Shown in pieces: positions 17,184 to 53,523 of a stretch of 64,000 bases of DNA. The DNA is from Calditrichia bacterium (GTDB lineage Bacteria > Calditrichota > Calditrichia > RBG-13-44-9 > J075). The DNA lies in NCBI GenBank assembly GCA_965227145.1, contig OZ245730.1, positions 3,086,187-3,150,186 on the forward strand. Reading direction: 5' to 3'. The position numbers were made by a program, and so were the translations under genes. The notes beneath the pieces are model-generated. The model saw only the letters and a program-made list of their open reading frames with translations, was not told the DNA's origin and made no database searches. Numbering within the stretch: position 1 is the stretch's first letter; the number at the start of each line of letters is the position of its first letter.

Positions 17184-18608
17184 TCAATAGGCGCCTTTGC
17201 CGAGGAAAGCCACCGGAATCGTTTCAAACAGGATTTCCATATCAAAGAAAATGGACTGGTTTTCGATATAATAGAGATCCAGCAAACACATTTCCTCGAA
17301 CGAGAGATTACTTCTGCCGGAAATTTGCCACAGTCCGGTGATACCCGGCTTGGTGTTCCCGCGCTTGGCATACCAATCGTAATTCACTTTGCCATTTTTG
17401 ATTTTGTTAAAATCATTGATCGGCAAGGGACGCGGTCCAACGATGCTCATATCCCCTTGTAATACATTAATAAACTGGGGAATTTCATCCAGGCTGTATT
17501 TGCGGAGGAATTTGCCGACCGGCGTTACCCGGGGATCATCCTTCATTTTGAACAATGCGCCGTTGGTTTCGTTATTTGCCCAGATTTTATCTTTCATGTC
17601 ATCAGCATTATCATACATGGTGCGGAATTTATAGAACCAGAATTCCGGGCCGCCTTTATACAGCGAACGTCTTTGTTTGAAAAAAACAGGACCTTTTGAA
17701 GTTAAGCGGATCATCGCTGCAATAATGGCACCGGCCGGAATGAGTAAAATACTGGCAAAAGCCAGAATAATTAAATCGAAGACCCGCTTCAGTCGGGACT
17801 GCCACACCGGCACCCGCAAACGCCGGCTGTCCGTGGATAGCGGCACGCCGGTAACATCTTTTACCTTGATCTGGTTCATCAGTTTTTTAACATCCGGCGA
17901 CACCATTTTAACCGCAACCCCAAAATGTTCGCAGGCTTTGCGGATCGGTTCGTATTTCTTTTCCAGCATGGAATCGCTGACAATAAACACTTTGTCGATG
18001 CCGTGTTCCGGGATAATCGTGTCCACATCGTGGTATTTACCGATAATATACGGCGCAATTTCGGGATGGTGATGGGGCGTGCCGTTGGCGATAAACCCGC
18101 GCAAATCGTAATAATCACCGTATGCATCCGTCAGGATTTCGGTAAAGCGCAGGGCAGACAGATCAGTGCCAACCACCAGTATCCGCTGATTGCCAAATCC
18201 CTTATTAAACAGGCGCAGGTTGATTTTGTGCATCAGGGTGTGCATGACTTCCAGAATGATGTATTGGGACATCAGAAAGATAATTACCACGCCTCGGGAA
18301 AACTCATGTCCCTTGATCAAGAACAGATAGGACATCGTGAGCAGACCGAGGTAGTAGGTCATTATTTTGAGGTGCTGTTTCTGATGCAAAATCGGGCTGC
18401 TGTAAACACTCCGGTAAAGCCCGAGGATAGCGGCCAGCGGGAAAAAGATCAGGTTGACAAATAGCCAGGGCTCAAAATATCTGGCTAAGGGTTCATCCAA
18501 TTCCGGGAAACGAAGATACAGCGCCAGCCGGAAAGCAGCGTTGATCATGATGAAATCGCCAATCATGACGAGCATCGTATAGACGAATCGCCAATTCCGT
18601 TTTAGCAT
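17184..18608 (-). CDS. Initiating polyprenyl-phosphate sugar phosphotransferase (WbaP/CpsE-type bacterial sugar transferase)
   Basis: 474 aa; N-terminal TMs and C-terminal catalytic domain (KRVFDLI, FFKQRR, YKFRTM, RVTPVGKFLRKYSLDEIPQFINVLQGDMSIVGPRP). Confidence 0.9.
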   Translation of the reverse strand: MLKRNWRFVYTMLVMIGDFIMINAAFRLALYLRFPELDEPLARYFEPWLFVNLIFFPLAAILGLYRSVYSSPILHQKQHLKIMTYYLGLLTMSYLFLIKGHEFSRGVVIIFLMSQYIILEVMHTLMHKINLRLFNKGFGNQRILVVGTDLSALRFTEILTDAYGDYYDLRGFIANGTPHHHPEIAPYIIGKYHDVDTIIPEHGIDKVFIVSDSMLEKKYEPIRKACEHFGVAVKMVSPDVKKLMNQIKVKDVTGVPLSTDSRRLRVPVWQSRLKRVFDLIILAFASILLIPAGAIIAAMIRLTSKGPVFFKQRRSLYKGGPEFWFYKFRTMYDNADDMKDKIWANNETNGALFKMKDDPRVTPVGKFLRKYSLDEIPQFINVLQGDMSIVGPRPLPINDFNKIKNGKVNYDWYAKRGNTKPGITGLWQISGRSNLSFEEMCLLDLYYIENQSIFFDMEILFETIPVAFLGKGAY

Positions 18609-28555: not shown

Positions 28556-30418
28556 TTAATTGTTAACTTTTTCCAGACCCGTGTTTTTTAAAATTGTATG
28601 CTCAATTATAAATAAATTCAACAGATAGCTAAAGGTTTTCATGTTTTCACTAAAAATGGATCTATCATTTTCATAAATACATATATGATATATTAAATAT
28701 AAACCATAAACACCATGGATAATTCTATCAATGATTTCTAAATCTATATTCAGTTTTAATAGATAAGTTTCATAAATTTTATACCAACCTATCTTTTCTG
28801 TTAATTCTTTGTGTACTTGATATTTGGAAGTTTTCCGGATCAGTATCATAACTTGGGTATAATAGCGTATAACATCAAAACCAGCAGGTGCAGAATCAAT
28901 TGCATATTCAAAGTCAAAAACACCAACTTTCGGTTTTGTATTATACATATTCCATGGTGTAAAATCACCATGAGAAAAGTGAAAAGGTAATTGTATAGAT
29001 AAAACTTTTTTAATGATTATCTCTAATGAATCTTCACAAAGGTGTTTTAAATACGGTGTTTTAATATGGTTAACCATTTTTTGTAATTCTAAGAAAAAAT
29101 CAGATTCCACCAATACCATTGCACTGTAATTTATTTTTGAAAAATCTTTTACGACATTTAAGAATTCTTCTTTTTCTAATATCATTGATTTATGCGATAT
29201 TTTTTTAGAATCAAGGGCACTTGTAACAAGACAATATTTAACTTTCCATCTCCCTTCATATAAAACTTCCGGTATATCAATCGCATGAAACTTATGAGAA
29301 TTTAAATTTTTTAAAATATTTGCTTCAGTTTTTAGACCTTCAATGGCGGCTTCTTTATTGGCAATTTTGGCAAATGCTATTATACTTCCATTTAAATCCA
29401 TTAAACAAAATACTATCTTACGTTTAGGACCAGGTGCGCCTAAAGATATTGAAAAATTTATTACATTAAGTTCTGGAAATAAACTATTAATAAAACGCAG
29501 GAAAGAGCTTAGCTGTGTCTGGTCAATATGTATTTTATTAAAAATATATTTTGCAAAACCACACTTAAATGATAATTGAATAAAATTTTTTAATAATCGT
29601 GCTTTTTTTGAGGCTGGAGAGTAAAGAGATAAACTATTAGTTATAGATCGTCTAAACTTATAGTTAACAATAAATCCGCGACCATCATTAAATTTTATTA
29701 ATACAAGTTCAGGATATGACTGCCTTTCATGATATGCATTGAAGAAACTTTGTACCCATAATTCTGGATTATAATCTGTTTTTGAATCGATATAATTATT
29801 AAACTTGCTAAGAATTAGTGTCTTTATTTCATTTGCAATTGCATAGGGAGCTCTATTTATTCGGATTAGATATTCAATTTCTCCTAACCTATGTAATTTA
29901 ATCCAACTTAATTGATGTTGGGTAAGAATTTTAACAGGTAATTCAGGTTTACGTCTATAAATATATTCTGGTTCATCATATAATAGTATGCTAATATCTG
30001 CCTTTTGAGCAACCTTTGGATATAGTTTAGTTATAAATATCTTTTTTAAACCAAATCTTTCTGGATTAACCAAAATATCTAAATAAGACCTATCATAAAA
30101 AACAAGATCAGATGAATTACAAATATTACTTTTAGAAAAAAACCGATCAATAGCATAGTCTATTAAATAATATATCTGTCTCGCAAATTGAAATTTGCCA
30201 TGCTCCTGTCTTGGTATTATTATAGAATCATTAATTTTGATATTTTGGGGTTGACGATGAGCTATTTTATGAAGAGGTGGTAAATACCCCGGACGCCAAA
30301 ACCTTCTTTCTAAATTAACATTGTCAAGTTGATTTATAAGAAAATCAAGAGTTGTAGATTTTCCAACACCATCAGGTCCATGAAGAGATATAGTAATTCT
30401 ATTAGATTTAGATTTCAA
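28556..30418 (-). CDS. Two-domain protein: N-terminal P-loop (nucleoside/nucleotide-kinase-like) plus C-terminal APH/choline-kinase-like phosphotransferase
   Basis: 620 aa; Walker A HGPDGVGKST near N-terminus; C-terminal HGDFTPWN (Brenner-type catalytic loop) and DFEYA (metal-binding D-x-E). Confidence 0.55.
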   Translation of the reverse strand: MKSKSNRITISLHGPDGVGKSTTLDFLINQLDNVNLERRFWRPGYLPPLHKIAHRQPQNIKINDSIIIPRQEHGKFQFARQIYYLIDYAIDRFFSKSNICNSSDLVFYDRSYLDILVNPERFGLKKIFITKLYPKVAQKADISILLYDEPEYIYRRKPELPVKILTQHQLSWIKLHRLGEIEYLIRINRAPYAIANEIKTLILSKFNNYIDSKTDYNPELWVQSFFNAYHERQSYPELVLIKFNDGRGFIVNYKFRRSITNSLSLYSPASKKARLLKNFIQLSFKCGFAKYIFNKIHIDQTQLSSFLRFINSLFPELNVINFSISLGAPGPKRKIVFCLMDLNGSIIAFAKIANKEAAIEGLKTEANILKNLNSHKFHAIDIPEVLYEGRWKVKYCLVTSALDSKKISHKSMILEKEEFLNVVKDFSKINYSAMVLVESDFFLELQKMVNHIKTPYLKHLCEDSLEIIIKKVLSIQLPFHFSHGDFTPWNMYNTKPKVGVFDFEYAIDSAPAGFDVIRYYTQVMILIRKTSKYQVHKELTEKIGWYKIYETYLLKLNIDLEIIDRIIHGVYGLYLIYHICIYENDRSIFSENMKTFSYLLNLFIIEHTILKNTGLEKVNN

Positions 30419-31662
30419 TTCTCTTTTGAATTTACCATTTTAAAAATATTAACAATTTCATCATTTAACTGTGATTCAAGTATTGTTAGTTCAGGATTGT
30501 TTATGGAGCTTATAACTTCGCTATTAAATTGTAAATTGCAACAATAACTATTTTTAATGCATTCATTAATTTTAACTTGCTCTTCTTGCAGTATAATATT
30601 AATTACTGCATCAGGGTTAGGTAAGAAAATTAAAAAAACATTCATAAGCTTTAATATTAATAAAGCTATCAAACTATTTTTTTTTTCTTGCAAAAAATTC
30701 GCTTGATAATAAATGACAAGCTGTTGTCGGCTTTTCATTAATTTTGTTTTAAAAAGCACCTCAACCAGATCCTTTATTATATTATCTAATATATTAAAGA
30801 AACTCATCCCCTTTGACATATAACGATAAAGGTTTCTTTGTACACAGTAATCCTTATTTATTTTATGTACTGGTAAGTGAAAAAACATTGGCAAGTCGAT
30901 ATTATTAATCTGTTTTACTAAATGAATTAAAAAAGCATTATTATTACAATTTAGGAGTATCAATGGCCCACACGGTGAAGTAAATACTAATGCCTTTTTT
31001 TTGATCCACCCAACTAAATTTTTAATAGCATTTCCAGGATGAGAAAAAATATAGTGTAATATTAAATCTCTTTTTAAATTTTTTAATCCTATTAATTTTT
31101 CTAATTGCGTTATTTCAAGATAGTAAAAAAATTGAACTACCGTTTTTGAATTAAGCTTTTTAGATAATATTTGTTTTCCAGCTTGAATAAACTCAAATAT
31201 CTTTTCTTCATTTTGAATATTATATAGTAACTTCCTCTCATTATTGGCTAAAACAGGTAACAATACTTTTCTAACAAATGGAAGCCAAAGTTTACTTTCG
31301 ATTTGTTTATCTTCTGAATTAAAAAAATCATTAAAATCAATAAAACCCCATGAAATATTTTTTAAGCTATGAAATTCGAGATATTGCCATTTCCCATTGA
31401 TTTTTTTTATTCCTATTATTCTTTTACCCCAAATGGGAGGAGGATGAATCGCATAAAATTCATTTTTGTGGAATTCTTTTTTAACCAGTTCTAATGCGAA
31501 TTCAACATCATTAAATATTACAACATCTATATCCCTACCAACCATCCTTGGAAATTTTTCTAATCCACTTACGACAGTAAAGAAAATATTGTAATTGTTA
31601 AATTGAGTTATAATAGATTGTATTATTGCAACTTTAAGTTTGTTGACATCAAGCAACATCAA
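30415..31662 (-). CDS. Hypothetical protein; N-terminal segment weakly nucleotidyltransferase/LicD-like (GRDIDVVIF)
   Basis: 415 aa, co-directional, start overlaps upstream stop; only a short D-I-D-V motif supports a family. Confidence 0.4.
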   Translation of the reverse strand: MMLLDVNKLKVAIIQSIITQFNNYNIFFTVVSGLEKFPRMVGRDIDVVIFNDVEFALELVKKEFHKNEFYAIHPPPIWGKRIIGIKKINGKWQYLEFHSLKNISWGFIDFNDFFNSEDKQIESKLWLPFVRKVLLPVLANNERKLLYNIQNEEKIFEFIQAGKQILSKKLNSKTVVQFFYYLEITQLEKLIGLKNLKRDLILHYIFSHPGNAIKNLVGWIKKKALVFTSPCGPLILLNCNNNAFLIHLVKQINNIDLPMFFHLPVHKINKDYCVQRNLYRYMSKGMSFFNILDNIIKDLVEVLFKTKLMKSRQQLVIYYQANFLQEKKNSLIALLILKLMNVFLIFLPNPDAVINIILQEEQVKINECIKNSYCCNLQFNSEVISSINNPELTILESQLNDEIVNIFKMVNSKEN

Positions 31663-36732: not shown

Positions 36733-37858
36733 TCAAAAATTCAGAAACTATTCTTTTAATATTAATACATGATTTACCATCTCCATATGGATTATCAGGA
36801 AGCGTCATTTGTTTGTATACGTTGGTTTTTGTCAATAATGTTTTTACGCCATAATAAATCTTGTTTGCATCAGTACCAACCAGGATAGCATTTCCGGCTT
36901 CAACACCTTCCATACGTTCTGTTACATCTCGCATTACTAACACAGGTTTATCCAATGAGGGTGCTTCTTCCTGAATACCGCCAGAATCTGTCAAAACCAG
37001 GTATGATTTGTTTAACAACCAAATAAAGTATTTATAATCCAGTGGGTCAATCAAATAGACATTTTTACAATTTGACAATATACGGTGAACAGGCTTTTGG
37101 ACTGACGGATTTAAATGCACTGGATAAACAAATTGGACATCACTAAAATTTTCTGCTGCCTTTCTGATGGCTAAACATATCTGTTCAAAAGGCTGCCCAA
37201 AACTTTCTCTACGGTGTGCAGTGATCAAAACAATTTTTTGATCGAATTTTAACATATCAAAATAATTATAAAAATCCATTTCATCAGAGTGATTGACTTG
37301 CTCTAGTCCCAATAACAATGCATCTATGACCGTATTCCCAACATTATGAATATTTGTTGAAATATTTTCATTCACAAGATTGTTAACAGCCAGTTGCGTA
37401 GGACAAAAATGGATGGTTGCAATTTTGGAGATCAATAAACGATTCATTTCTTCTGGAAAAGGGGAATATTTGTTAAAACTTCTTAATCCGGCCTCAATAT
37501 GGGCGACAGGTATTTTATTATAAAATCCAACCAATGCGCCCAAACAAGCCGTGGTTGTATCGCCCTGAACAAAGATAATATCCGGTTTTTCATTTACGAT
37601 AACTTCTGAAAGATTATTAATAATTGTAGCGGACAAATATGCCAATGATTGATTTTCTCGCATTACCTTCAGATCATAATCTGGCACAATATTAAAAAAA
37701 TTTAAAATATGATCCAACATTTGACGGTGTTGGCCTGTTGAACAAATTATTGTTCTATATTTAGGATCGATGTAATATTGTTTAATAAGGGGAGCAAGTT
37801 TTACTGCCTCGGGTCTCGTACCAAATATAAATAATACTTTTATCTTAAGTTTCCTCAA
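36725..37858 (-). CDS. wecB: UDP-N-acetylglucosamine 2-epimerase (non-hydrolysing)
   Basis: 377 aa; FGTRPEAVKLAPL, HIEAGLRS, TAHRRESFG, LTDSGGIQEEAPSLDKPVLVMRDVTER. Confidence 0.9.
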   Translation of the reverse strand: MRKLKIKVLFIFGTRPEAVKLAPLIKQYYIDPKYRTIICSTGQHRQMLDHILNFFNIVPDYDLKVMRENQSLAYLSATIINNLSEVIVNEKPDIIFVQGDTTTACLGALVGFYNKIPVAHIEAGLRSFNKYSPFPEEMNRLLISKIATIHFCPTQLAVNNLVNENISTNIHNVGNTVIDALLLGLEQVNHSDEMDFYNYFDMLKFDQKIVLITAHRRESFGQPFEQICLAIRKAAENFSDVQFVYPVHLNPSVQKPVHRILSNCKNVYLIDPLDYKYFIWLLNKSYLVLTDSGGIQEEAPSLDKPVLVMRDVTERMEGVEAGNAILVGTDANKIYYGVKTLLTKTNVYKQMTLPDNPYGDGKSCINIKRIVSEFLNE

Positions 37859-39113
37859 TTTTTATTTTTTTTATATCATTAAAGATATTAGTAAATAAAT
37901 GATCTAAGTTGTTTCTAAAATAAGTTAAGCTCCACCTATTTTCAAAAAGCTTAATTGTATTTTGAGTTGCATTAACACACCACTCAGGACTTTTTCTGCT
38001 GGCATCATCAATACACTCGACCAATGAATCAACATCCCAGGAATCAGTAAGAATATTCTGTTGGTCATCAGAAATTATATCGACATACCCAACAGGAATT
38101 AAACCTAAAGCCAGTGTTCCCAAGAAAGCTGTACCAATTCCAAAATTTACCGGTGCATGTACAGAAAAATTTGTATTCAATAATAAATTTCGCAATTTTC
38201 TGTGAAATGGCTTAAACCGCCAATGATATATATAGTGTATATTTTTTAAATTGAGTTCCGATTTATAGTATTTTAAAATTTCATCTTCAACGGCACAATA
38301 GATATATAGGTTTAAATCTTTTCTTTTTGCAAATACCTCTAATAATAAGTCTAAACCTTTTTGAATGTTACCTCCAGTACCGCCTACATAAATAAATTTT
38401 TTTAAACCTTTAGAATAATTTTTTAATTTAATATCAACATTCATATGGTTTAAAGGGTAGGATGTCCAGCCTGAATAAATAAATTTATTTTTATATTCCC
38501 CATAACCTTCTATCATCCTTGGACAATGACCACAGAATAAAACATCTGCTTTATTAGTCAAATATTCTTCACCTTCAATTAAACCTTTTAGAGATCTTTT
38601 AAAATCATAATCATCTTTGACGATATTATTTCTTCTAAAAAACCTTTCATATCTTTCTACAGATTCACTATTAAGACTTTTCCAATATGCACCTGAAACA
38701 TATTGGAATACTGGAGTATTCTCGGGCAGGCTTTCAATAATCGTACGGCAATTACCACCATGTCCAATAAATAAATCGTATTTCTTTGTTGGTAAAAAGT
38801 CTTTCTCCTTATAATCAATAATATCAACATCGAACCCACATCTATTAAGCGCATGTACTAATTCATAAGTAAAACCAGTAATGTTAAAATATTTTATTTC
38901 AGGGAGCTCGTACACCGCTGTTTCCCAGGATTTCGGAGATAAACTCACTAAGGCTAATTTGGAACTTTGAGATTTGGGCAAAACATTTATATTCTCAAGA
39001 ATCTTGCTACTTTGATAAATACTATTCGATGTTTTTCGCCGTATTGATATCAATGAAATGAAGCCATTCAATTTTCTTTGTGAGAGGGCTATTTTTAATG
39101 TAGTTTTAATCAT
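37845..39113 (-). CDS. Hypothetical protein, possibly a divergent GT-B-like transferase
   Basis: 422 aa ORF co-directional with flanking sugar genes; no firm motif. Confidence 0.4.
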   Translation of the reverse strand: MIKTTLKIALSQRKLNGFISLISIRRKTSNSIYQSSKILENINVLPKSQSSKLALVSLSPKSWETAVYELPEIKYFNITGFTYELVHALNRCGFDVDIIDYKEKDFLPTKKYDLFIGHGGNCRTIIESLPENTPVFQYVSGAYWKSLNSESVERYERFFRRNNIVKDDYDFKRSLKGLIEGEEYLTNKADVLFCGHCPRMIEGYGEYKNKFIYSGWTSYPLNHMNVDIKLKNYSKGLKKFIYVGGTGGNIQKGLDLLLEVFAKRKDLNLYIYCAVEDEILKYYKSELNLKNIHYIYHWRFKPFHRKLRNLLLNTNFSVHAPVNFGIGTAFLGTLALGLIPVGYVDIISDDQQNILTDSWDVDSLVECIDDASRKSPEWCVNATQNTIKLFENRWSLTYFRNNLDHLFTNIFNDIKKIKIEET

Positions 39114-39148: not shown

Positions 39149-39874
39149 CTAAATAGTCCCTGAATCAACAAATATATTTTGACCGGTTATTGAACTAGCT
39201 TTTTCTGACAGAAGAAACTCAACCGTATTCGCTACAGAATTTAGTGAGGTAGGTGTTTTTAGTGAATTTCTATTATAAATTCTGTTTCTTTGACCATCAT
39301 CCAATTTTTGGCTCATTGAAGTTTCCATGAATCCTGCAACGATACAATTTGATCTTATCCCTTTACTTCCCCATTCCCTAGAAGTATTTTTTGAAAAGGC
39401 CTCCAATGCACCTTTTGTTGAAGCATACATTGCAAGCCCTTTATAACCTGTATGCACACTTATAGAAGAAATGTTCACAATACTACCTTGTATTTGATGA
39501 AGCAACATATTTCTAATAACATATTTGGTGATTAGCATTGGCGTAAAAACATTAACCTGAAACATCTCATGCAAAGGTTTTATATCAATATTTGTTACAA
39601 TGTCATCATAAGCAATTGCTGCATTGTTTACAAAGCCATGCAAAGGAATATCATAATTAATGAAACCCTTTGTTAGTAAGTTTTTACAACCTTGAGTATC
39701 TAATAAATCAAATGACTTGATATAAATTTTACTTTCATAACTATTCATTAATAATTTTAAATCATTAGAAATTGTTCTGCATAAGCCATGTACAGTATAC
39801 CCTTTTTCAAGTAAAACTTGAGCAATTTCCAATCCAAGCCCTTTGGATATACCAGTTAATAAAATATTCTTCAT
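39149..39874 (-). CDS. Short-chain dehydrogenase/reductase (FabG-like)
   Basis: 241 aa; TGISKGLG glycine motif, NNAA, catalytic S...YxxxK (SSISVHTGYKGLAMYASTK). Confidence 0.85.
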   Translation of the reverse strand: MKNILLTGISKGLGLEIAQVLLEKGYTVHGLCRTISNDLKLLMNSYESKIYIKSFDLLDTQGCKNLLTKGFINYDIPLHGFVNNAAIAYDDIVTNIDIKPLHEMFQVNVFTPMLITKYVIRNMLLHQIQGSIVNISSISVHTGYKGLAMYASTKGALEAFSKNTSREWGSKGIRSNCIVAGFMETSMSQKLDDGQRNRIYNRNSLKTPTSLNSVANTVEFLLSEKASSITGQNIFVDSGTI

Positions 39875-41103
39875 TATCTTTTTATTTTTCCGGTTCTTGT
39901 TGCTTCAATTGAATCGACAATATTTATTATTCTAGGGATTTTAAAATTTTGTATCTTTTTGTTAAGAAAATCTTTCAAAGTTTTTTCGGAAATATCTTTT
40001 TTTATAACTATATCAGCACATAAGACATTTCCAATTACAGAATTTTTTTTTGCAAAGACTCTGGAAATTTTAATATTAGGATGCGAATTAATAACGGATT
40101 CTATTTCCAGAGGATTTACTTTATAACCACCAACATTTATTAACTCATTTTTTCTACCAACAAATCGAAAAACTAAAGGATCGTTTTCTACAATCTCTAC
40201 TATATCACCTGTATTATACCAATTATCATTCAACTCTATAGAGTTAGTATATCCCAATAACTTGTTATTAATGAACAACTCATTATCAACTATTTTCACC
40301 ATTTTTTTTAAGGCATCTTTTATTTGAAACAGATCGCCATTTGCTGCAAGTACAGTACCTGCCTCAGTTGAAGCATAAACATTCAGTATTTTAGCATTTG
40401 GAAAAATTGTAAGCAAACTTTCAGTAAATTTGTTATCAAATTTTTCCCCTCCAGAAGTTATACGCTTGACAGAATTATAAGGCTTTTCAATCGGAAGCAA
40501 CATTCGAAAAAAAGTTGGTGTTGCAGAAATATTAGTAATATGAAATTGCTCAATAAGTTCATAAATCTTAGAACGTGATTGACCAAATAAAGTAATTATT
40601 GAATTATTATTTAGCAGAGCCTGAAAGAAGACTTGTAATCCAGCAATATGTGTTGGATTGTATGAAAAACCCCAAATATCCGACTCCATTTTTGAAGATT
40701 TTTTTACCATTCGAGTTACGTTTTGAAACGTATGACTTACCCTCTTTGGAAGCCCTGTTGTTCCTGAGGTATATAATGTGATTCTCCATTTAGAAGTATT
40801 ATTAAATGAAGTAATCATTTGAGGAGGTGTTAACTCATTTATATTTTTTAAGTCATAACCAGAGGTTAGCTCTTCCTTTGTAATTCCTAGATTCTCAATT
40901 TCGATATTTGAAAAGTCATAGTCCAGTAAAATTATTGGACAATCGTGTATTAATGAGCAAACAATGTTTTTAAATATATTATAATAATCATTTGTATAAA
41001 CATAGCGATTTAAATACCTTAATTGTATTATATCATTAAATAAATCATCATAAGTATAGCTTTTGTTTGAAAAGCTGTCCCAAAAAAACAATTTTTTATG
41101 CAT
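39874..41103 (-). CDS. Adenylate-forming enzyme (ANL superfamily), likely acyl-ACP/CoA ligase
   Basis: 409 aa; AMP-binding motif TLYTSGTTGLPKRV, later GYTNS/YNTGD. Confidence 0.8.
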   Translation of the reverse strand: MHKKLFFWDSFSNKSYTYDDLFNDIIQLRYLNRYVYTNDYYNIFKNIVCSLIHDCPIILLDYDFSNIEIENLGITKEELTSGYDLKNINELTPPQMITSFNNTSKWRITLYTSGTTGLPKRVSHTFQNVTRMVKKSSKMESDIWGFSYNPTHIAGLQVFFQALLNNNSIITLFGQSRSKIYELIEQFHITNISATPTFFRMLLPIEKPYNSVKRITSGGEKFDNKFTESLLTIFPNAKILNVYASTEAGTVLAANGDLFQIKDALKKMVKIVDNELFINNKLLGYTNSIELNDNWYNTGDIVEIVENDPLVFRFVGRKNELINVGGYKVNPLEIESVINSHPNIKISRVFAKKNSVIGNVLCADIVIKKDISEKTLKDFLNKKIQNFKIPRIINIVDSIEATRTGKIKR

Positions 41104-41326
41104 TATCTAAATCTAACTTTTTGAATATTTCACCTAAAGTTGATACCAAACCATCTTCAAATACATCTATACCAAATTCTTTTTCAATTCGAACAGTAAA
41201 TTCAGCTAGATCTAGTGAATCAAATCCAATATCCTTTCGTAAATCCATGGAGAGATTTAATTCGTTAAATTCAGTTAAATCCTTATTATATCTCATAATG
41301 TTAATAATTTCCAATATTTTTTCCAT
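41096..41326 (-). CDS. Acyl carrier protein
   Basis: 76 aa; phosphopantetheine-attachment motif GFDSLDLAEF. Confidence 0.8.
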   Translation of the reverse strand: MEKILEIINIMRYNKDLTEFNELNLSMDLRKDIGFDSLDLAEFTVRIEKEFGIDVFEDGLVSTLGEIFKKLDLDNA

Positions 41327-41327
41327 A

Positions 41328-41978
41328 TTAAAATCTCATTTCCTTAGCTGGGTTACCAAATACTTTTTTAGGCTTGAGTATGGATTGTGTTACAACTGAT
41401 CCTACCCCAATAAAACAATCGTTGACAATTTTGGTTTCAATGTTAATCGTAGAACTATTACTAATATATACTCTATCTCCGACATTCGATCTGGCACCAA
41501 TAACTACACCAGCACCAAGTAAGCATGAATTACTTATTGTAACATCGTGTCCTAAAATAGAGCCATAGAATATGTTGTTAAAATTACCGATTTTGACGTT
41601 AGACCCAAACAGTACATTCTCATATATTATATTCCCAATACCTATCTCAGAAAAAGTTATATCTGTTTTTGGATGAATAAGATTTGGTAGGTTTGTAATA
41701 TTGTATTCGTTTTTTATGCGTTTTATAATAGATTCATGATGTTGGGTTGATTGAAAAACTGTATTAACAACAGCGCATTTCTTATATTTTGACTTAAGTA
41801 ATTCATCTCCTCCAATGATAGGTACACCAAAGATATCTTTACCTATACATTCTTTATCCTTTTCTAAAAAACCGATAATATTGTAAGTTTTTTTTTGCTC
41901 ATTAATTGCTTTTATCAACTTTATTATATCTGAGTCTCCAGCACCGATAATCACTAAATCTTGCATCATGTCCTTCAA
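41328..41978 (-). CDS. NeuD/PglB-family hexapeptide acyltransferase (sugar N-acyltransferase)
   Basis: 216 aa; N-terminal Rossmann-like VIIGAGDS, then hexapeptide repeats (IGNFNNIFYGSILGHDVTISNSCLLGAGVVIGARSNVGDRVYI). Confidence 0.8.
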   Translation of the reverse strand: MKDMMQDLVIIGAGDSDIIKLIKAINEQKKTYNIIGFLEKDKECIGKDIFGVPIIGGDELLKSKYKKCAVVNTVFQSTQHHESIIKRIKNEYNITNLPNLIHPKTDITFSEIGIGNIIYENVLFGSNVKIGNFNNIFYGSILGHDVTISNSCLLGAGVVIGARSNVGDRVYISNSSTINIETKIVNDCFIGVGSVVTQSILKPKKVFGNPAKEMRF

Positions 41979-42904
41979 TCAGTAAAAAAATCGTTAATTT
42001 TAAACTTATCTGTATTATCTGTAAAAACTAGTATAGTACCATCAGTAGTTTTAACGATGATCCCACCATCACTAAAGACTTCACAAACTGTGCCTGCTTT
42101 ATAAGTAGGGAAGAAATTCTTTTCAAAAGGAATACCTTTAAATACCTTTACAACTTTCCCATTAATATAAGTATGTGCAAGTGGATATGGTTTTTCTAAA
42201 GCACGAATCAAATTATAGATATGTTCAGTATTAAACTTTTGCCAAAGGATTTGCCCATCTTCAATTGACCTTTTTCGGAGATATATAATATTTTCTTTAA
42301 CTTTCTGACTATTAAAAGTTAAAGTGTTGTTAGATATTTCTTGAAACAAATTTTGTATAAATTCTTTTGCAACAATACTGATTTTTTTGTATAAACTAGA
42401 ATTATTATCAAATTTTGATATTTCAATTTTTTTATGGTACACTATTGGACCATTGTCTACTTCAGGCGATACCTTAAACAAATAAAAATTATATTCTTTA
42501 TATCCCCCAGCAATTGACCATATCACAGGTGATCTACCCCTGCCATCAGGTAATTCAAAAGGCGATCCATGAAATCCAAAACAACCTTTTTTAAAAAAAC
42601 TGAGAATGTTGTTTGGTATTAACCTGTTCCATCCAATTACTAATCCTATATCTGGTTCACAGTTCTTAATATAGTCTAAATCACTTTTCGATTTTAGATT
42701 ATATTTGTCTGCAAAAAATATTTCGTCTGTCGGAGCATTAACAATATTCTCATAATACTCACCAAGACCGATTTTATCTGCTTTTTCTTTCGAAATTGTA
42801 ACCAATGTAGATTTATTAAGATACATTAAATCAATATTCAATAAAATATCATATGCAGGCTGATTAACTCCAAAAAAAATCGTATTATAACCTTTATCTT
42901 TCAT
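41975..42904 (-). CDS. Formyltransferase-family protein (sugar N-formyltransferase candidate) with C-terminal extension
   Basis: 309 aa; GFHGSPFELPDGRGRSPVIWSIAGG resembles the formyl_trans_N catalytic loop. Confidence 0.6.
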   Translation of the reverse strand: MKDKGYNTIFFGVNQPAYDILLNIDLMYLNKSTLVTISKEKADKIGLGEYYENIVNAPTDEIFFADKYNLKSKSDLDYIKNCEPDIGLVIGWNRLIPNNILSFFKKGCFGFHGSPFELPDGRGRSPVIWSIAGGYKEYNFYLFKVSPEVDNGPIVYHKKIEISKFDNNSSLYKKISIVAKEFIQNLFQEISNNTLTFNSQKVKENIIYLRKRSIEDGQILWQKFNTEHIYNLIRALEKPYPLAHTYINGKVVKVFKGIPFEKNFFPTYKAGTVCEVFSDGGIIVKTTDGTILVFTDNTDKFKINDFFTD

Positions 42905-46407: not shown

Positions 46408-47916
46408 CTAAAAAATAATGGCTTTTTTGTATAGCATATAGATATAATACAAACTACCCAAGACCGTTCCGAAAAGCAGATCAACCAGATAGGGCTCATC
46501 AAAAAATTGTCTGAATATAATAACACTAGTAGAAAATAGAAGTATTGGGAGTAAATGTATCCTATAAACCGACTTAAAAAAGTCTTTAAATTTTACACCA
46601 ATAGTTCTTGTTGTTTGGATCATTACAAAACTGATTACGATTAAGGAGGTAATGAGTAAGGCATTAGACGCACCAATTAAACCAAAATACTTGGTTAATA
46701 ACGGAATAAATATCAGGTATGATACAATTGTAATAGCAGAAAAAAAACCTATAAGCCTTGAGATACCCAATCCAAGTAAAACCAGATTCGGAATTGCTGT
46801 AAAACTGCCAACTGTCCCGCTTAAACAGATAATACTCAATATTAACCAGCTTTTATTAGCAAATTCCGCTCCCATCCATAATGTCATAATAGGCTCTGAA
46901 AAAAAAATCACTACGCAAGAAATGGGTAAACTAACAGCAGCAAAAATTAAATTGGATTTAATAAAAGATCGTTTTATTTCTTCAGTTTTTCCCAATGCTG
47001 CCAATCGGCTGGTATAAGGAAAAATGGCATTCGCTGCGGCAGATAATACACCGCCAATTGCACCCAGAAGTTTGGCAGGCACCACATAAAAAGTTACGGC
47101 CGCAGGCCCCAGAAAAAAAGAAATCACAAACCGAACCACATAGGTTGCAAAAATATTTGATATACGGGATAAGAAAAGATACAGAGTAAACGATAGAAAT
47201 TTTTTGATAATAGCTATATTAAAACCCAGACCGAATGTGTATGAAAGTTTATTTCTTTTGAATAATATCGCATATGCGATTAGTTGTGTTACTGCTATTG
47301 AAACATTAACCCAAACTGCCTCTTTAATACCATATCCCATCATCAAAACAACCAATAATAGCAAGTTTAATGTTAGGTTTGATCCCGAATCAATCGTTGT
47401 AACGCCACCATATAATTCCAATCCTTTCATTGCAGCGGAATAGGTTGAGGCAAGCATGCTAAAAAAAAAACCGACGGATGCTATTCTCAGGGCACTAACT
47501 GCATCTTGATAAAAAATATCTGTAACATTCAATAGTGCTATTATATTTTCACTGAATAAAAAAATTGTTGTGCTTAATACTAAGCCGATCATTAACTGTA
47601 TGGTAAAAACCGAATTAACAGCATCATTTAACTGTTCTTTCGAATCTGTTGAGTTGTATTCAGAAACAAATTTGATTAACCCCTGACCCAAACCAAAATC
47701 GAAAATACCATAATACCCAACAATACTGATAATCAGGATATAAATGCCATATTGCTCAAAACCAAAGTTGCTTACAAGAAAAGGCGTGATTACTAACCCG
47801 ACGAGAGAGATAAAAACAAAACCACCTGAACCGAATACAGAATTTCGAAATAACGGATGCTTGAATTTATTTTTTAGCATTGCATAATATTGCAATACTA
47901 CTTCGGTTGTTTTCAT
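46408..47916 (-). CDS. Wzx-type oligosaccharide flippase (MOP superfamily)
   Basis: 502 aa, about 12-14 hydrophobic helices, position in the Wzx/Wzy-type locus. Confidence 0.75.
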   Translation of the reverse strand: MKTTEVVLQYYAMLKNKFKHPLFRNSVFGSGGFVFISLVGLVITPFLVSNFGFEQYGIYILIISIVGYYGIFDFGLGQGLIKFVSEYNSTDSKEQLNDAVNSVFTIQLMIGLVLSTTIFLFSENIIALLNVTDIFYQDAVSALRIASVGFFFSMLASTYSAAMKGLELYGGVTTIDSGSNLTLNLLLLVVLMMGYGIKEAVWVNVSIAVTQLIAYAILFKRNKLSYTFGLGFNIAIIKKFLSFTLYLFLSRISNIFATYVVRFVISFFLGPAAVTFYVVPAKLLGAIGGVLSAAANAIFPYTSRLAALGKTEEIKRSFIKSNLIFAAVSLPISCVVIFFSEPIMTLWMGAEFANKSWLILSIICLSGTVGSFTAIPNLVLLGLGISRLIGFFSAITIVSYLIFIPLLTKYFGLIGASNALLITSLIVISFVMIQTTRTIGVKFKDFFKSVYRIHLLPILLFSTSVIIFRQFFDEPYLVDLLFGTVLGSLYYIYMLYKKAIIF

Positions 47917-47941: not shown

Positions 47942-49486
47942 CTATTTTAATATTCCAGCCGATGGATCTTTATCCATTAATAATGGATTGTATAATATCA
48001 TACCAGTGTAAGGATAATTAACCTGGTCAGAAGGATCATAATCATTTTTATCTATGATCATACTGTTTAAAACTGTTATATCCGTCGTGGCCCACCAATT
48101 GTTTGTTGCATCGATATCCTCACCGTTATCACTCACAATTGTACCCACAATTTGGGTAATCACCTGAGACTTTGTTGAAAGGTTGTTTCTATTGATAACC
48201 GGTTCGCTTTTTGAGTTATATCCCCTGGCTGTTATATAGATCGCCTGAAATTCATTTGACTGAATATTATTGAACGTTATTGAAGGCTTGCATCCGCTAA
48301 CTTCAATGCCGACGGATAAGTTTTTAACAATATCATTGTTTTTGATTATCGCATCACTTTGAAACCAGCAGATAATGCCGTTTGCATTTTTAGTTATCAG
48401 GTTATTGGATATCAATATGTCAGACTGGCTGATACTTATCCCGTCATCATTTGACCCGATAATAATAGAATTTTTAATCTCGTTTGTATTATCCGCATCC
48501 GAAACTTGTAAGCCAACAAAATTTTCATCTAATAGAACTTTATCAATACTGCACTGTGATATATTTTGGGATAAGCTAATGCCTGTACTACTAGCACCTG
48601 TTATAATCGCATTATTAATTTTGTTAGAATTGTTCCGTATACTTATACCTGAGGTCGTCTTACGAAGTGTTATGCCATCTAAAGTATTGTTCGAAGAGTT
48701 AATCAGAATGCCGCGCCAAAAACCGCTATTAGATATATCGTTTGAGAAATGGGAAAACCCTGTTTGGGTTTTGATTACCCTGCCGTTAACCGTCAATCTG
48801 CTATTTAACTTTCCCAGGCACCATACTTTTTCTTCAATAGTCAATGTGGCTCCAGCATCCACAAAAACTTCACCTTCCAACACATAGGATTTACCACTTT
48901 CCCACATTATGTTGCCAGTTAAAATACCGCTTACATTGATTACTTCACTCAAGTCAAAATTCTGGCTACCGCGGCCAACTTCATAACGGTATTGCCAACC
49001 AAACCCATCCTTACTCGCCACCACATTATACTCCCCCTGCGCCACATTCTCAATCTTCCAATTCCCGCCGGCATCGCTAACGGTTGTTACTACCGGGGTA
49101 TGTTCCCGGTGGTCAAACTCGGTTTCCTGGGAAATTTGCACACCAATGTTGGGGTATTGCTCATTTATGCGCACTAGTGCCGTATCCAGTTCTACGGGTT
49201 TGTATAAGGCAAAGGTCACACCGCTGTGGTCGGTTTGCCCTTCCAGGGTTACCTTGCCGGAGAAGGTTACGGTTTCTTCGCCGGGGTCGGTGCCTTTCTT
49301 ACTGCAGGAAGAAGAAAGAAAAAAGAGTAAAGAAAAAAGAAAAAAGATGAAGGACCTTCTAAAGATAAAAGATGGAAGATGAAAGATGGAAGAAAGGTCA
49401 AGAATGGTTCTTGTAATTTTGGGCGTATTGATACAAGAAAATTGTTTTGATAATATATTCTTTTTTGAGGTCATTTTAGTCACCAA
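47942..49486 (-). CDS. Lipoprotein with right-handed parallel beta-helix repeats
   Basis: 514 aa; hydrophobic leader ending LSSSC-SKKG (lipobox-like), then repeated NN-I-x-G-x-S/I-x-N units typical of beta-helix folds. Confidence 0.65.
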   Translation of the reverse strand: MVTKMTSKKNILSKQFSCINTPKITRTILDLSSIFHLPSFIFRRSFIFFLFSLLFFLSSSCSKKGTDPGEETVTFSGKVTLEGQTDHSGVTFALYKPVELDTALVRINEQYPNIGVQISQETEFDHREHTPVVTTVSDAGGNWKIENVAQGEYNVVASKDGFGWQYRYEVGRGSQNFDLSEVINVSGILTGNIMWESGKSYVLEGEVFVDAGATLTIEEKVWCLGKLNSRLTVNGRVIKTQTGFSHFSNDISNSGFWRGILINSSNNTLDGITLRKTTSGISIRNNSNKINNAIITGASSTGISLSQNISQCSIDKVLLDENFVGLQVSDADNTNEIKNSIIIGSNDDGISISQSDILISNNLITKNANGIICWFQSDAIIKNNDIVKNLSVGIEVSGCKPSITFNNIQSNEFQAIYITARGYNSKSEPVINRNNLSTKSQVITQIVGTIVSDNGEDIDATNNWWATTDITVLNSMIIDKNDYDPSDQVNYPYTGMILYNPLLMDKDPSAGILK

Positions 49487-49777: not shown

Positions 49778-50200
49778 TTATCTTTGATCTTTCTTCTGGT
49801 CACATTTCGAGACGATTGAACCCAGGATGAGGGCTAATTCTTTTGATTCATTCACCAAGAATCTTCTCTCATCAATATTGCCAATTTCCAATTCATCAAC
49901 AATTCTCAAAAAGTAATTGCTTTCCCTGGCTTCTCTTAGCGCAATTCGCACTTTCTGGACAAATTCACGGTATGTTGATGCCTGAGATTCCTCATAGTTG
50001 GCACCAATTGAAGTCGCTGCTTTTGAAATTTGATACCGAAATACGTCGTATTCTTTCCTGGAAGGGATTGTAAGCAAAAATTTCATGGTTCTGACAGCAA
50101 AGTTGAACAACCGTTTACGCAGGTCCGTTTGATATTTTTGTTCAACTTCCTTGACAATTAAATCAATGTTCCCCGGCACTTCCTGATAATCAATCATCAC
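49778..50200 (-). CDS. Four-helix-bundle protein (23S rRNA intervening-sequence protein family)
   Basis: 140 aa; family-typical SIGANYEESQ and REARESNYFLRI segments. Confidence 0.75.
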   Translation of the reverse strand: MMIDYQEVPGNIDLIVKEVEQKYQTDLRKRLFNFAVRTMKFLLTIPSRKEYDVFRYQISKAATSIGANYEESQASTYREFVQKVRIALREARESNYFLRIVDELEIGNIDERRFLVNESKELALILGSIVSKCDQKKDQR

Positions 50201-52392: not shown

Positions 52393-53523
52393 TTATTTCA
52401 TGAGCACTTCGATGATGTAATCCTGCGTATCGGCATCCAGATAGGGATGCATGGGCAGGCTGAAGATGCGGGTCATCACCGATTCGGTTACCGGGAAGTC
52501 ACCGAGCTTGTAGCCGAGACCGGCAAAAGCATCCTGCAAGTGCAGCGGTTTGGGATAATAGACCGCCGTGGGCACGCCGTTTTCTTTCAGCATTGCCATG
52601 TCCGCTTCGCGATTATCGCTGAGGATGGAGTATTGCGCCCATACGCTGCTGCGATCGTCTTTTACCTGCGGCACAATATATTTTCCGGCAAGCGCCTTGC
52701 TGTATCGCGCGGCAACTGCATCGCGCAGCTCAATTTCTTCATCAAAGATGGTCAGTTTTTCCAGCACAACGGCTGCCTGCATGGTATCCATCCGTCCGTT
52801 GATACCGATGCGAACGTTATCATATTTATGTCCGCCCTGCCCGTGAACCCGGATAGAACGGAGTTTTTCGGCGATACTGTCGTCATTGGTAAAGATGGCG
52901 CCGCCGTCGCCATAGCAACCGAGCGGTTTTGCCGGGAAGAAGGATGTGCCGGCTACATCGCCGTGGCTGCAGGTTTTAGTGCCTTTGTAAGTTGCGCCAA
53001 AGGACTGCGCAGCGTCCTGCCAGACTGCCATGCCGTATTGTTTGGCAATCGCGTTAATTTCGTCGTAATCGGCCGGCTGCCCGAACAGGTCCACCGGGAT
53101 AATGCCTTTGGGTTTGTATTCGCTTTGGGGCGATGCATAGCATTCAATGGCTTCAGCCAATGCTTTGGGATCGATGTTGTAGGTTACCGGATCGATATCC
53201 ACAAATACCGGGCGGGCACCGAGCAGGGCAATCACTTCGGCAGTGGCGATAAAGGTAAAGGGCGTGGTGAAAACGGCATCCCCGGGACCAACTTCATTGG
53301 CCATCAGTCCCATCAGCAGGGCATCGGTGCCGTTGCCGCAGCTGATGCAATGCTGTACGCCGACATAATCCGCAAGCTTGCTTTCCAGCTCTTTTATTTC
53401 CGGTCCCATGATGTATTTGCCGTGATCCAGAACAGCGGCAATCCGCCGGTCGAGGTTTTCACGAATCCGCGCCTGCTGCGCGGCAAGATCGATAAATTGA
53501 ATGTTTTTTAGTGCGGTTGTCAT
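52393..53523 (-). CDS. DegT-family sugar aminotransferase (WbpE/ArnB-like)
   Basis: 376 aa; N-terminal FIDLAAQ, GNGTDAL, PLP-lysine region; next to the oxidoreductase-acetyltransferase fusion. Confidence 0.9.
   Translation of the reverse strand: MTTALKNIQFIDLAAQQARIRENLDRRIAAVLDHGKYIMGPEIKELESKLADYVGVQHCISCGNGTDALLMGLMANEVGPGDAVFTTPFTFIATAEVIALLGARPVFVDIDPVTYNIDPKALAEAIECYASPQSEYKPKGIIPVDLFGQPADYDEINAIAKQYGMAVWQDAAQSFGATYKGTKTCSHGDVAGTSFFPAKPLGCYGDGGAIFTNDDSIAEKLRSIRVHGQGGHKYDNVRIGINGRMDTMQAAVVLEKLTIFDEEIELRDAVAARYSKALAGKYIVPQVKDDRSSVWAQYSILSDNREADMAMLKENGVPTAVYYPKPLHLQDAFAGLGYKLGDFPVTESVMTRIFSLPMHPYLDADTQDYIIEVLMK

Follow-up and report, generated by a model that had tools for sequence, protein, structure and literature searches.

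A putative carrier-protein-dependent N-acylation module in a Wzx/Wzy-type polysaccharide operon of a Calditrichia bacterium

A stretch of 64,000 nucleotides from a Calditrichia bacterium (assembly GCA_965227145.1, contig OZ245730.1, positions 3,086,187 to 3,150,186; hereafter the window) carried four consecutive genes on the minus strand at positions 41978-39149. In the order of transcription, they encoded a NeuD-like acyltransferase, a free-standing acyl carrier protein (ACP), a short adenylate-forming (ANL) ligase and a short-chain dehydrogenase/reductase (SDR). From their gene content, order, conservation and homologies, from which every catalytic step described below is inferred, the block is probably (roughly 60%) a dedicated carrier-protein-dependent N-acylation module within a Wzx/Wzy-type polysaccharide operon. 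The ligase would attach a carboxylic acid to the ACP, the SDR would reduce the bound group and the NeuD-like protein would transfer it to an amino sugar.

The four-gene block

A preliminary description of this DNA had listed four co-directional open reading frames and the families of their products, and both were confirmed by domain and family E-values far beyond chance. The ACP contained the GFDSLDLAEF motif attributed to it and matched the PP-binding family PF00550 (E 2.9e-8). The ligase matched AMP-binding (9e-23) and AMP-binding_C (1e-11), and the SDR matched adh_short_C2 (6e-41). The NeuD-like and ACP genes were separated by +1 nt, the ACP and ligase genes by -8 nt, and the ligase and SDR genes by -1 nt; these abutting or overlapping frames indicate translational coupling within the block. 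Reading frames overlapped or abutted from the DegT aminotransferase gene down to the SDR gene, and the whole series from the Wzx flippase gene to the SDR gene reads as a single operon. The DegT, dehydratase and nucleotidyltransferase genes reported next to the block were all present, but they were not directly adjacent to it: a PIG-L de-N-acetylase gene and a formyltransferase-like (Fmt-like) gene, neither of them mentioned earlier, were wedged between the DegT and NeuD-like genes and overlapped their neighbours by 4-11 nt.

The NeuD-like protein aligned from end to end with TIGR03570 (121.1 bits, E 4.5e-35, residues 8-212 on positions 2-202 of the 202-position model). This upheld the family proposed for it, although the score fell short of the curated cut-off of 160.8 bits, and by its sequence the protein is a divergent TIGR03570 member or belongs to a sister group. 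Its best solved relatives were VioB (7txp) and the perosamine N-acetyltransferase PerB (4ea7). Full-length alignments (residues 5-214 of 7txp) covered both the N-terminal alpha/beta domain and the C-terminal left-handed beta-helix (LbH), a Hexapep repeat was detected, and the His of a 'GHD' motif aligned with the catalytic His of VioB and PerB. As these two enzymes act on 4-amino-4,6-dideoxy sugars and the His is conserved, a 4-amino group is the likely target, and the DegT and 4,6-dehydratase genes within the operon provide the context for an NDP-4-amino-4,6-dideoxyhexose acceptor.

Among the fetched loci (labelled L), the nearest relative of this protein was the NeuD of a Lentimicrobium locus (L069; gene order DegT-NeuD-ACP-ligase-SDR), which was 43% identical and directly upstream of the ACP. 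By contrast, a metagenomic locus (L084, 5593-8903) that shared with the window, in the same order, the nucleotidyltransferase (71% identity), DegT (76%), PIG-L (62%) and Fmt-like (45%) genes lacked the trio of ACP, ligase and SDR genes, and its LbH protein was just 28% identical to the window NeuD. Because the Lentimicrobium NeuD abuts the trio and the LbH protein of L084 is unrelated, the NeuD-like protein would be the functional partner of the ACP. This contrast constitutes the strongest evidence gathered here for such a partnership, and it suggests that the NeuD-like gene and the trio were swapped in together as an acylation module, displacing the ordinary acetyltransferase of a pre-existing pathway.

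A conserved ACP-ligase-SDR cassette

Among 1.8 billion proteins, the ligase family, whose members are typically about 410 aa long, had about 1,700 cluster representatives at E 1e-30, including some multidomain proteins of the nonribosomal peptide synthetase (NRPS) type. A search seeded by just two peptide patterns confirmed relatives in 372 stretches of GTDB species-representative genomes. Cultured species with the trio include Caldithrix abyssi DSM 13497, Parabacteroides segnis, Flavobacterium tiangeerense and Cyclobacterium xiamenense, and the hosts belonged to Bacteroidota, Ignavibacteriota, Calditrichota, Cloacimonadota, Verrucomicrobiota, Spirochaetota, Chlorobiota, Chloroflexota and Bacillota. 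The order ACP-ligase-SDR on one strand was found in 75 of 81 non-redundant fetched loci, four of the six exceptions being contig ends. Across the trio loci, the ligase was 42-57% identical to the window protein and the SDR 56-73% identical, and the window ACP shared 43-65% identity with the ACPs preceding the ligase in the 75 loci.

Glycosyltransferases, DegT aminotransferases (near the trio in 24 loci), NDP-sugar enzymes, flippases and NeuB were the neighbours over 80 loci. An acyltransferase candidate was encoded at most five same-strand genes away in 69 of the 80 (LbH 42, GNAT-like 22, AAC(3)-like 7) and an amidohydrolase (XrtA-type NodB/DUF3473 deacetylases, other NodB, PIG-L or DUF4910) near the trio in 36; the counts are approximate, neighbour clusters having been labelled from Pfam and NCBIfam scans of one representative each. 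Sugar genes varied by locus, with FdtA isomerases in Caldithrix, a hexose 2,3-dehydratase and a GFO oxidoreductase in Ignavibacteriaceae, and LegB-like, NeuB or WecB proteins elsewhere. Since the sugar pathways beside it vary, the acyl group, rather than the sugar, would be the substrate of the trio. A constant trio combined with variable sugars and variable transferases is what would be expected of a portable acyl-donor cassette, and the frequency of deacetylases suggests that the cassette often replaces an N-acetyl group.

The four genes delimited earlier as one module were all recovered, with the difference that the conserved unit is the trio plus a variable transferase. The alternative raised with them, in which the ACP and ligase belong to lipid metabolism and are unlinked to the locus in related strains, is contradicted by the colinearity of the trio in 75 of 81 loci and by its location nearly always within glycan loci. 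The synthesis of an N-acylated amino sugar, which the preliminary description had proposed, is supported by this glycan-locus context, by the acyltransferase candidates in 69 of 80 loci, by the contrast between L069 and L084 and by published analogues. No description of a ligase-containing trio in a glycan context was found in the literature, which was covered incompletely.

Several of the fetched loci departed from the simple arrangement. In six loci of Cloacimonadota (L009, L016, L040, L044, L068, L070), a block of genes recurred that encoded a 255-aa protein without Pfam or NCBIfam match, a NeuD-like LbH protein, an XrtA-type NodB/DUF3473 deacetylase, the ACP, the ligase and the SDR, and that ended in most of them with a LegB-like epimerase; the block appears to be a fixed deacetylate-and-reacylate module. 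Hybrid loci from Parabacteroides, Ignavibacteria and Bacteroidales metagenome-assembled genomes (L012, L078, L079) combined the trio with a NeuD, two 3-oxoacyl-ACP synthase III (KAS III) proteins, a second ACP and a second SDR. They resemble the wfpC-G set of Flavobacterium psychrophilum primed by a ligase cassette, and longer polyhydroxy acyl groups are predicted for them by analogy.

An ACP-ligase-SDR series also occurred in an alphaproteobacterial flagellin glycosylation island on plasmid p3 of Azospirillum brasilense Sp7 (L088, NZ_CP033315.1 333752-352681), in the order pseI, glycosyltransferases, alpha/beta hydrolase, ACP, ligase, SDR, KAS III and flagellin. The published Sp7 flagellin glycan, a Rha/Fuc/Gal/GlcNAc repeat, leaves these trio genes unexplained, and acyl-donor genes were not identified in the published Tannerella and Azospirillum glycan studies. 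Finally, a Bacillus cereus plasmid (L089, NZ_CP042875.1 11529-13237) and 35 other Bacillus plasmids encoded a relative of the ligase paired with an ACP, with no SDR; the L089 ligase matched the C-terminal 74% of the query at 30% identity and adjoined alpha/beta-hydrolase genes, with no obvious glycan locus.

Acyl group and carrier chemistry

In the acyl branch proposed from comparative genomics and homology, the short ANL ligase would adenylate a carboxylic acid and thioesterify it to the 76-aa ACP, the SDR would reduce the ACP-bound group with NAD(P)H, and the NeuD/VioB-type transferase would pass the hydroxyacyl group carried by the ACP on to the 4-amino group, replacing the usual acetyl. 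The core motifs of the ligase (P-loop TSGTTGxPK, E247, D300, R317 and K406) were invariant among 22 aligned homologues. Its A4 region, PTHIAGL, was of the acyl-CoA-synthetase type and had no Asp for an alpha-amino group, which ruled out amino-acid activation of the DltA or NRPS kind.

The idea of an ACP-dependent N-acylation module, present in the preliminary description, was retained; the 3-hydroxyacyl group given there as an example is just one option, and an omega-hydroxyacyl group is at least as likely. If the general mechanism holds, an omega-hydroxyacyl group of the Mup/Tml type would have somewhat less than an even chance, while it is a more tentative proposal that a 3-oxo acid is loaded and its keto group then reduced, giving a 3-hydroxyacyl group, and the use of another acid is tentative to the same degree. 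According to the passages on priming in PMC10098928, MupQ, MupS and MacpD, a carrier with a C-terminal extension, convert malonyl-CoA into 3-hydroxypropionyl-ACP. When plasmids were searched by tblastn, a match was found on the thiomarinol plasmid pTML1, which encoded in order a 445-aa ligase, a 241-aa SDR, a 111-aa ACP and a polyketide synthase (PKS). The window ligase matched the pTML1 ligase with 138 bits (30% identity over 390 aa) and its best solved ANL relative, MenE, with 87 bits, and the profile of trio ligases scored the pTML1 ligase at 174 bits, pointing with moderate confidence to a specific relationship with MupQ/TmlQ over other ANL families.

As in the Mup/Tml priming cassette, the same three protein types were adjacent in the window, the SDR gene coming immediately after the ligase gene. 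The Mup/Tml product serves as a starter unit for a ketosynthase, whereas the product in the window would be a donor for sugar N-acylation. In a Mup-type reaction, the ligase would join malonyl- or succinyl-CoA to the ACP via the free carboxylate, and the SDR would reduce the CoA-thioester end to an alcohol, giving 3-hydroxypropanoyl- or 4-hydroxybutanoyl-ACP; because malonyl-CoA is universal, the trio would need no further genes. A natural O-antigen containing N-(4-hydroxybutanoyl)-Qui3N has been found, judging from a title cited in PMC8707391.

Five solved structures reached E 1e-25 with the SDR, namely CylG, three FabGs and MupS (4yxf), the last ranking fifth with 94.6 bits against 97 bits for the FabGs. 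The SDR had GLG and NNAA motifs in common with MupS/TmlS, and the GQxNY motif of FabG was absent. Only these three short motifs lean towards MupS; by profile scores and Protein Data Bank ranks, MupS/TmlS could not be told apart from ordinary ketoreductases.

Several observations weigh against the proposed module or against its Mup-type version. The NeuD-like protein scored below the TIGR03570 cut-off, its use of acyl-ACP is conjectural, and the characterised members of its family use acetyl-CoA. Identity between the window and Tml proteins was only 30-32%, and the profile of trio SDRs scored TmlS at 162 bits, compared with 170-186 bits for the KAS III-associated ketoreductases of other loci. 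Unlike in Mup/Tml, where the ACP lies downstream (111 aa on pTML1, in the order ligase-SDR-ACP-PKS), the window ACP lies upstream of the ligase, is 76 aa long and lacks the C-terminal extension of the Mup/Tml carrier, and downstream of the trio there is no ketosynthase. The functions given to the PIG-L and Fmt-like proteins, and the order in which they would act, are guesses, the canonical catalytic Asn being absent from the latter.

A far-reaching extension, which must be regarded as doubtful, is that the trio is a general, horizontally mobile 'acyl-swap' cassette that brought the dithioester chemistry of Mup/Tml from polyketide biosynthesis to surface glycans, using transferases of at least three unrelated folds (LbH, GNAT-like and AAC(3)-like) together with de-N-acetylases of several folds (NodB/DUF3473 and PIG-L). 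It would, just as tentatively, exchange N-acetyl for hydroxyacyl groups on amino sugars in hundreds of species of about nine phyla. The possibility that the window cassette displaced the acetyltransferase of a LegB-type pathway that also uses an Asn-less Fmt-like enzyme is put forward with the same reserve.

Comparison with 3-hydroxyacyl systems

The alternative that survives best, though unlikely, retains the same architecture with classical chemistry: the ligase would load a short 3-oxo acid (e.g. acetoacetate), the SDR would be a 3-oxoacyl-ACP reductase, and the NeuD-like protein would transfer a 3-hydroxyacyl group (e.g. 3-hydroxybutanoyl). The top family matches of the SDR were indeed 3-oxoacyl-ACP reductases of the FabG type, as were three of its five best solved relatives; its score with the FabG model TIGR01830 (E 4e-42) was nevertheless far under the cut-off (144 against 297 bits), and GQxNY was absent. 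The 3-hydroxybutanoyl group is the commonest known non-acetyl N-acyl group in O-antigens, which also counts for classical chemistry.

Examples of 3-hydroxybutanoyl amino sugars are given in PMC4869667, and the glycan systems backed by genetics or structures yield 3-hydroxyacyl groups, such as 3-hydroxybutanoyl viosamine in Pseudomonas syringae (PMC3927599) and 3,5-dihydroxyhexanoyl QuiNAc4N in F. psychrophilum (PMC6519341). However, these precedents make the 3-oxoacyl-ACP by KAS III, and the window, having no ketosynthase, has no 3-oxoacyl source. A tblastn search of the window with a KAS III query from a related locus gave no match at E 1e-3, and no ketoacyl-synthase domain was detected among the scanned operon proteins. 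Moreover, free 3-oxo acids are not general metabolites, and (R)-3-hydroxybutanoyl-ACP is already an intermediate of fatty-acid synthesis, which would make a dedicated trio redundant; the enterobacterial 3-hydroxybutanoyl sugars require a transferase alone, FdhC or QdhC (PMC4869667).

The viosamine island of P. syringae pv. tabaci consists of vioA, vioB, vioS, vioR, acp, vioM and vioT, and a homologous island is involved in flagellin glycosylation in P. aeruginosa PAK (PMC3927599). VioA, VioB, the ACP, a KAS III (VioS) and a ketoreductase (VioR) lead to N-(3-hydroxybutanoyl)-viosamine, which is missing from mutants in either vioB or vioR (PMC3927599). The window shares with this island a DegT-type aminotransferase for a 4-amino-4,6-dideoxyhexose, a VioB-family LbH protein, a dedicated ACP and a FabG-like reductase, but has an ANL ligase and no ketosynthase where the island has VioS. 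The island decorates flagellin from dTDP-viosamine, whereas the window encodes a LegB-type, probably GDP-linked HexNAc pathway for a Wzx/Wzy polysaccharide. In F. psychrophilum, the PglD/NeuD homologue WfpG has been proposed to move 3,5-dihydroxyhexanoyl from the ACP WfpD to the 4-amino group of QuiNAc4N (PMC6519341). The wfpC-G set and the window have in common a PglD/NeuD-type transferase, a locus-specific ACP and the predicted type of acceptor; they differ in that wfpC-G, whose roles were predicted from sequence, has two ketosynthases and a ketoreductase, no ligase, and a UDP-sugar made via PglF/PglE. Relative to the gene set of the viosamine and wfp type, transferase, ACP and reductase were consecutive in the window, with the SDR placed after the ligase, and the KAS III was missing.

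The tetronate set of Vibrio cholerae O1 (wbeK-O / rfbK-O) also has an ACP and an acetyltransferase-like protein, and it includes an iron alcohol dehydrogenase and a LuxC-like reductase, not a classical SDR. By this gene list, a ligase and an ACP are found in both systems, whereas no domain of the iron alcohol dehydrogenase or LuxC type was detected in the scanned operon proteins. The analogy with tetronate drawn in the preliminary description holds for the ligase logic, WbeL (471 aa), which is ligase-like, being needed for the tetronate N-acyl group of perosamine (PMC3441752), and does not extend to the iron alcohol dehydrogenase and the LuxC-like reductase. Overall, ACP-dependent N-hydroxyacylation of amino sugars is known, and the window differs by its ANL-ligase priming and by the graft onto a LegB-type pathway with PIG-L and Asn-less Fmt-like proteins.

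Sugar acceptor and alternative roles of the transferase

The dehydratase exceeded the curated LegB cut-off (TIGR04180, 494.8 against 475 bits). The DegT protein matched PF01041 (E 2.8e-111) and scored below the cut-offs of both the PseC (314 against 423) and LegC (266 against 420) models. The nucleotidyltransferase (PF00483, E 1.7e-36), whose top NCBIfam match was a mannose-1-phosphate guanylyltransferase model below its cut-off, occupied the PtmE position of Leg pathways. The LegB match prompted the consideration of a locus for legionaminic acid, a nonulosonic acid, which was rejected: no NeuB homologue was found by tblastn in the 64-kb window, no NeuA/CMP-synthetase was found there, and the sole 2-epimerase was of the non-hydrolysing WecB type (464.7 bits, against 103.7 bits with the NeuC model, whose cut-off is 235.9).

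In comparison with the legionaminic pathway (PtmE, LegB, LegC, LegH, LegG, LegI, LegF; PMC5378307), the window possessed, in the same order, LegB, a nucleotidyltransferase in the PtmE position, a DegT protein and a NeuD/PglD-type transferase, whereas NeuB/LegI, the CMP-synthetase LegF, an aminotransferase at the LegC level and a hydrolysing epimerase (LegG/NeuC) were not found in it. Because NeuB and NeuA are missing, the epimerase is WecB-type and the DegT protein fails the LegC and PseC cut-offs, the pathway would halt at the NDP-hexose level, and the locus is a LegB-type start halting at an NDP-diamino-trideoxyhexose, not a nonulosonic-acid locus. The LegB-family enzymes of Campylobacter jejuni and Tannerella forsythia (Bacteroidota) are specific for GDP-GlcNAc, with PtmE providing the GDP-sugar (PMC5378307); by analogy, a GDP-linked 2-acetamido-4-amino-2,4,6-trideoxyhexose is thus the most likely acceptor. 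In the sugar branch suggested by family membership, the nucleotidyltransferase and the LegB-type dehydratase would produce an NDP-4-keto-6-deoxy-HexNAc, probably GDP-linked, and the DegT protein would introduce the 4-amino group, yielding an NDP-2-acetamido-4-amino-2,4,6-trideoxyhexose, a bacillosamine-type sugar.

The PIG-L (PF02585, E 1.7e-17) and Fmt-like (PF00551, 4.8e-12; PF02911, 1.5e-12) proteins imply the remodelling of a second N-substituent. The Fmt-like protein had Gly at the position of the catalytic Asn (FGFHGS, against INVHGS in Fmt and FNLHGS in ArnA), a residue invariant in 19 of 19 family members; His112 and Asp150 were retained, and the chemistry may be other than ordinary formyl transfer. 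Its family was small (57 matches at E 1e-10 or better in a word-indexed search) and was seen in Pse-type, sulfated-glycan and LegB-type loci. Formylation of the ACP, as in 10-formyl-tetrahydrofolate dehydrogenase, was considered for this protein and rejected, as the family occurs in loci without an adjacent trio-type ACP. The set of nucleotidyltransferase, DegT, PIG-L, LbH and Fmt-like proteins common to the window and L084 suggests a conserved pathway in which the 2-N-acetyl group is removed and then replaced. PIG-L would free the 2-amino group and the Fmt-like protein would probably re-substitute it, the end sugar bearing two non-standard N-substituents.

It is improbable, more so than classical chemistry, that the NeuD-like protein is instead an ordinary acetyl-CoA-dependent 4-N-acetyltransferase equivalent to LegH or PglD, with the ACP-bound acyl group going to the 2-amino group freed by PIG-L, via another transferase, or to a hydroxyl. 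Every relative with a characterised structure (VioB, PerB and PglD-type) is an acetyl-CoA enzyme, the syntenic L084 has an LbH protein in the same pathway with the trio absent, and the de-N-acetylases beside the trio in 36 of 80 loci suggest that the acyl group often replaces the acetyl of a pre-existing N-acetyl sugar. However, the operon encodes no other plausible acyltransferase, the Fmt-like family being also found without the trio, and the NeuD-like gene ends 1 nt upstream of the ACP start. The nearest relative in L069 likewise abuts the trio whereas the LbH protein of L084 is only 28% identical, 42 of 80 loci have an LbH-type protein beside the trio, and dedicated ACP use has already been proposed for WfpG, itself a PglD homologue (PMC6519341).

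Very improbable is a trio unrelated to the glycan, i.e. a lipid or secondary-metabolite priming cassette or lipid-anchor start merely located in the locus: the sole characterised homologous cassette found (Mup/Tml) does prime fatty-acid and polyketide chains, according to the same passages of PMC10098928, and a KAS III follows or precedes the trio in L088, L012, L078 and L079, but no ketosynthase, thioesterase or PKS was found in the window, the trio is translationally coupled to sugar-modifying genes, its neighbours over 80 loci are glycan genes, and L088 itself, between pseI and flagellin, is a glycosylation island.

Organisation of the surrounding locus

The coordinates of the operon genes and of the gene following them are given in Table 1. 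Downstream of the block were genes for the non-hydrolysing WecB epimerase, glycosyltransferases and a Wzy-like membrane protein, and an initiating sugar transferase was encoded at 17184-18608. The 422-aa protein encoded immediately 3' of the SDR gene, for which no homologue was found in other trio loci, can be proposed by inference only as a candidate glycosyltransferase for the modified sugar.

Table 1. Genes of the predicted operon and its 3' neighbour, listed from the 3' end of the transcript (positions in the window).
Feature	Coordinates	Strand	Family or domain match
422-aa protein with a weak GT1 signature, 35 nt 3' of the SDR gene	37845..39113	-	Glycos_transf_1, E 4.9e-4, below cut-off
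FabG-like classical SDR, 241 aa, proposed reductase of the ACP-bound acyl group	39149..39874	-	adh_short_C2
Short adenylate-forming (ANL) ligase, 409 aa, proposed to charge the ACP with a carboxylic acid	39874..41103	-	AMP-binding, AMP-binding_C
Free-standing ACP, 76 aa, with DSL phosphopantetheine attachment motif	41096..41326	-	PF00550
NeuD/PglB/VioB-family LbH N-acyltransferase, 216 aa, proposed acyl-ACP:amino-sugar N-acyltransferase	41328..41978	-	TIGR03570
Formyltransferase-like protein, 309 aa, without catalytic Asn	41975..42904	-	Formyl_trans_N, Formyl_trans_C
PIG-L/LmbE-family de-N-acetylase, 225 aa	42894..43571	-	PF02585
DegT-family pyridoxal-phosphate aminotransferase, 376 aa	43568..44698	-	PF01041
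LegB-type NAD-dependent HexNAc 4,6-dehydratase, 328 aa	44708..45694	-	TIGR04180
Sugar-1-phosphate nucleotidyltransferase, 232 aa	45700..46398	-	PF00483
Wzx-type MOP flippase, 502 aa, first conventional gene of the operon	46408..47916	-	NF007773, E 2.7e-16

The operon was located in an island of low GC content (about 28000-50000), with 27-34% GC, rising to 36-38% at the right-hand end (about 44-50 kb), in surroundings of mostly 41-52% GC and a genome of roughly 44-52% GC. The GC skew was negative throughout the island, and these features fit a serotype-specific part of the locus that was acquired horizontally. A gene for a '23S rRNA intervening sequence protein' (four-helix bundle) bordered the island at 49778-50200 (minus strand), and a gene of the same family occurred in Caldithrix abyssi (L001, 2184-2558), a few kb from the trio and among toxin-antitoxin genes.

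Other genes of the minus strand encoded proteins of less certain function. A 620-aa protein (28556-30418) had an N-terminal P-loop (GPDGVGKST) and a weak match to kinases of the aminoglycoside phosphotransferase (APH) type in the HGDFTPWN region, and the adjacent 415-aa protein (30415-31662) had no family match; the two may add a phospho-substituent to the glycan. Just upstream of the Wzx gene, at the head of the operon, a 514-aa protein (47942-49486) combined a hydrophobic N-terminus followed by a Cys, as in lipoproteins, with a CarboxypepD_reg-like domain and right-handed beta-helix/NosD repeats, one possibility being a polysaccharide-processing enzyme. A second DegT aminotransferase was encoded outside the island at 52393-53523 (minus strand), at normal genome GC; the 354-aa open reading frame antisense to nearly all of it (52447-53511, plus strand) is most likely spurious.

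Significance of the module

N-acyl groups carried by amino sugars act as dominant epitopes in O-antigens, capsules and flagellar glycans and often serve as phage receptors, yet the donor pathway is unknown for most non-acetyl N-acyl groups. Knowledge of the enzymes that modify nonulosonic acids has been termed "scarce" (PMC5378307). The instance in the window is a sensible annotation and no surprise in itself; worth experiments are the broader cassette, its coupling to deacetylases and the possible Mup-type chemistry. If the link to MupQ/MupS is true, a polyketide "priming" reaction would also serve glycan decoration, and glyco-engineers would gain a three-gene part that places hydroxyacyl handles on sugars. 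Were a single member of the trio characterised, sequences could be used to read off the acyl chemistry in many uncultured members of Bacteroidota, Ignavibacteriota, Cloacimonadota and other groups.

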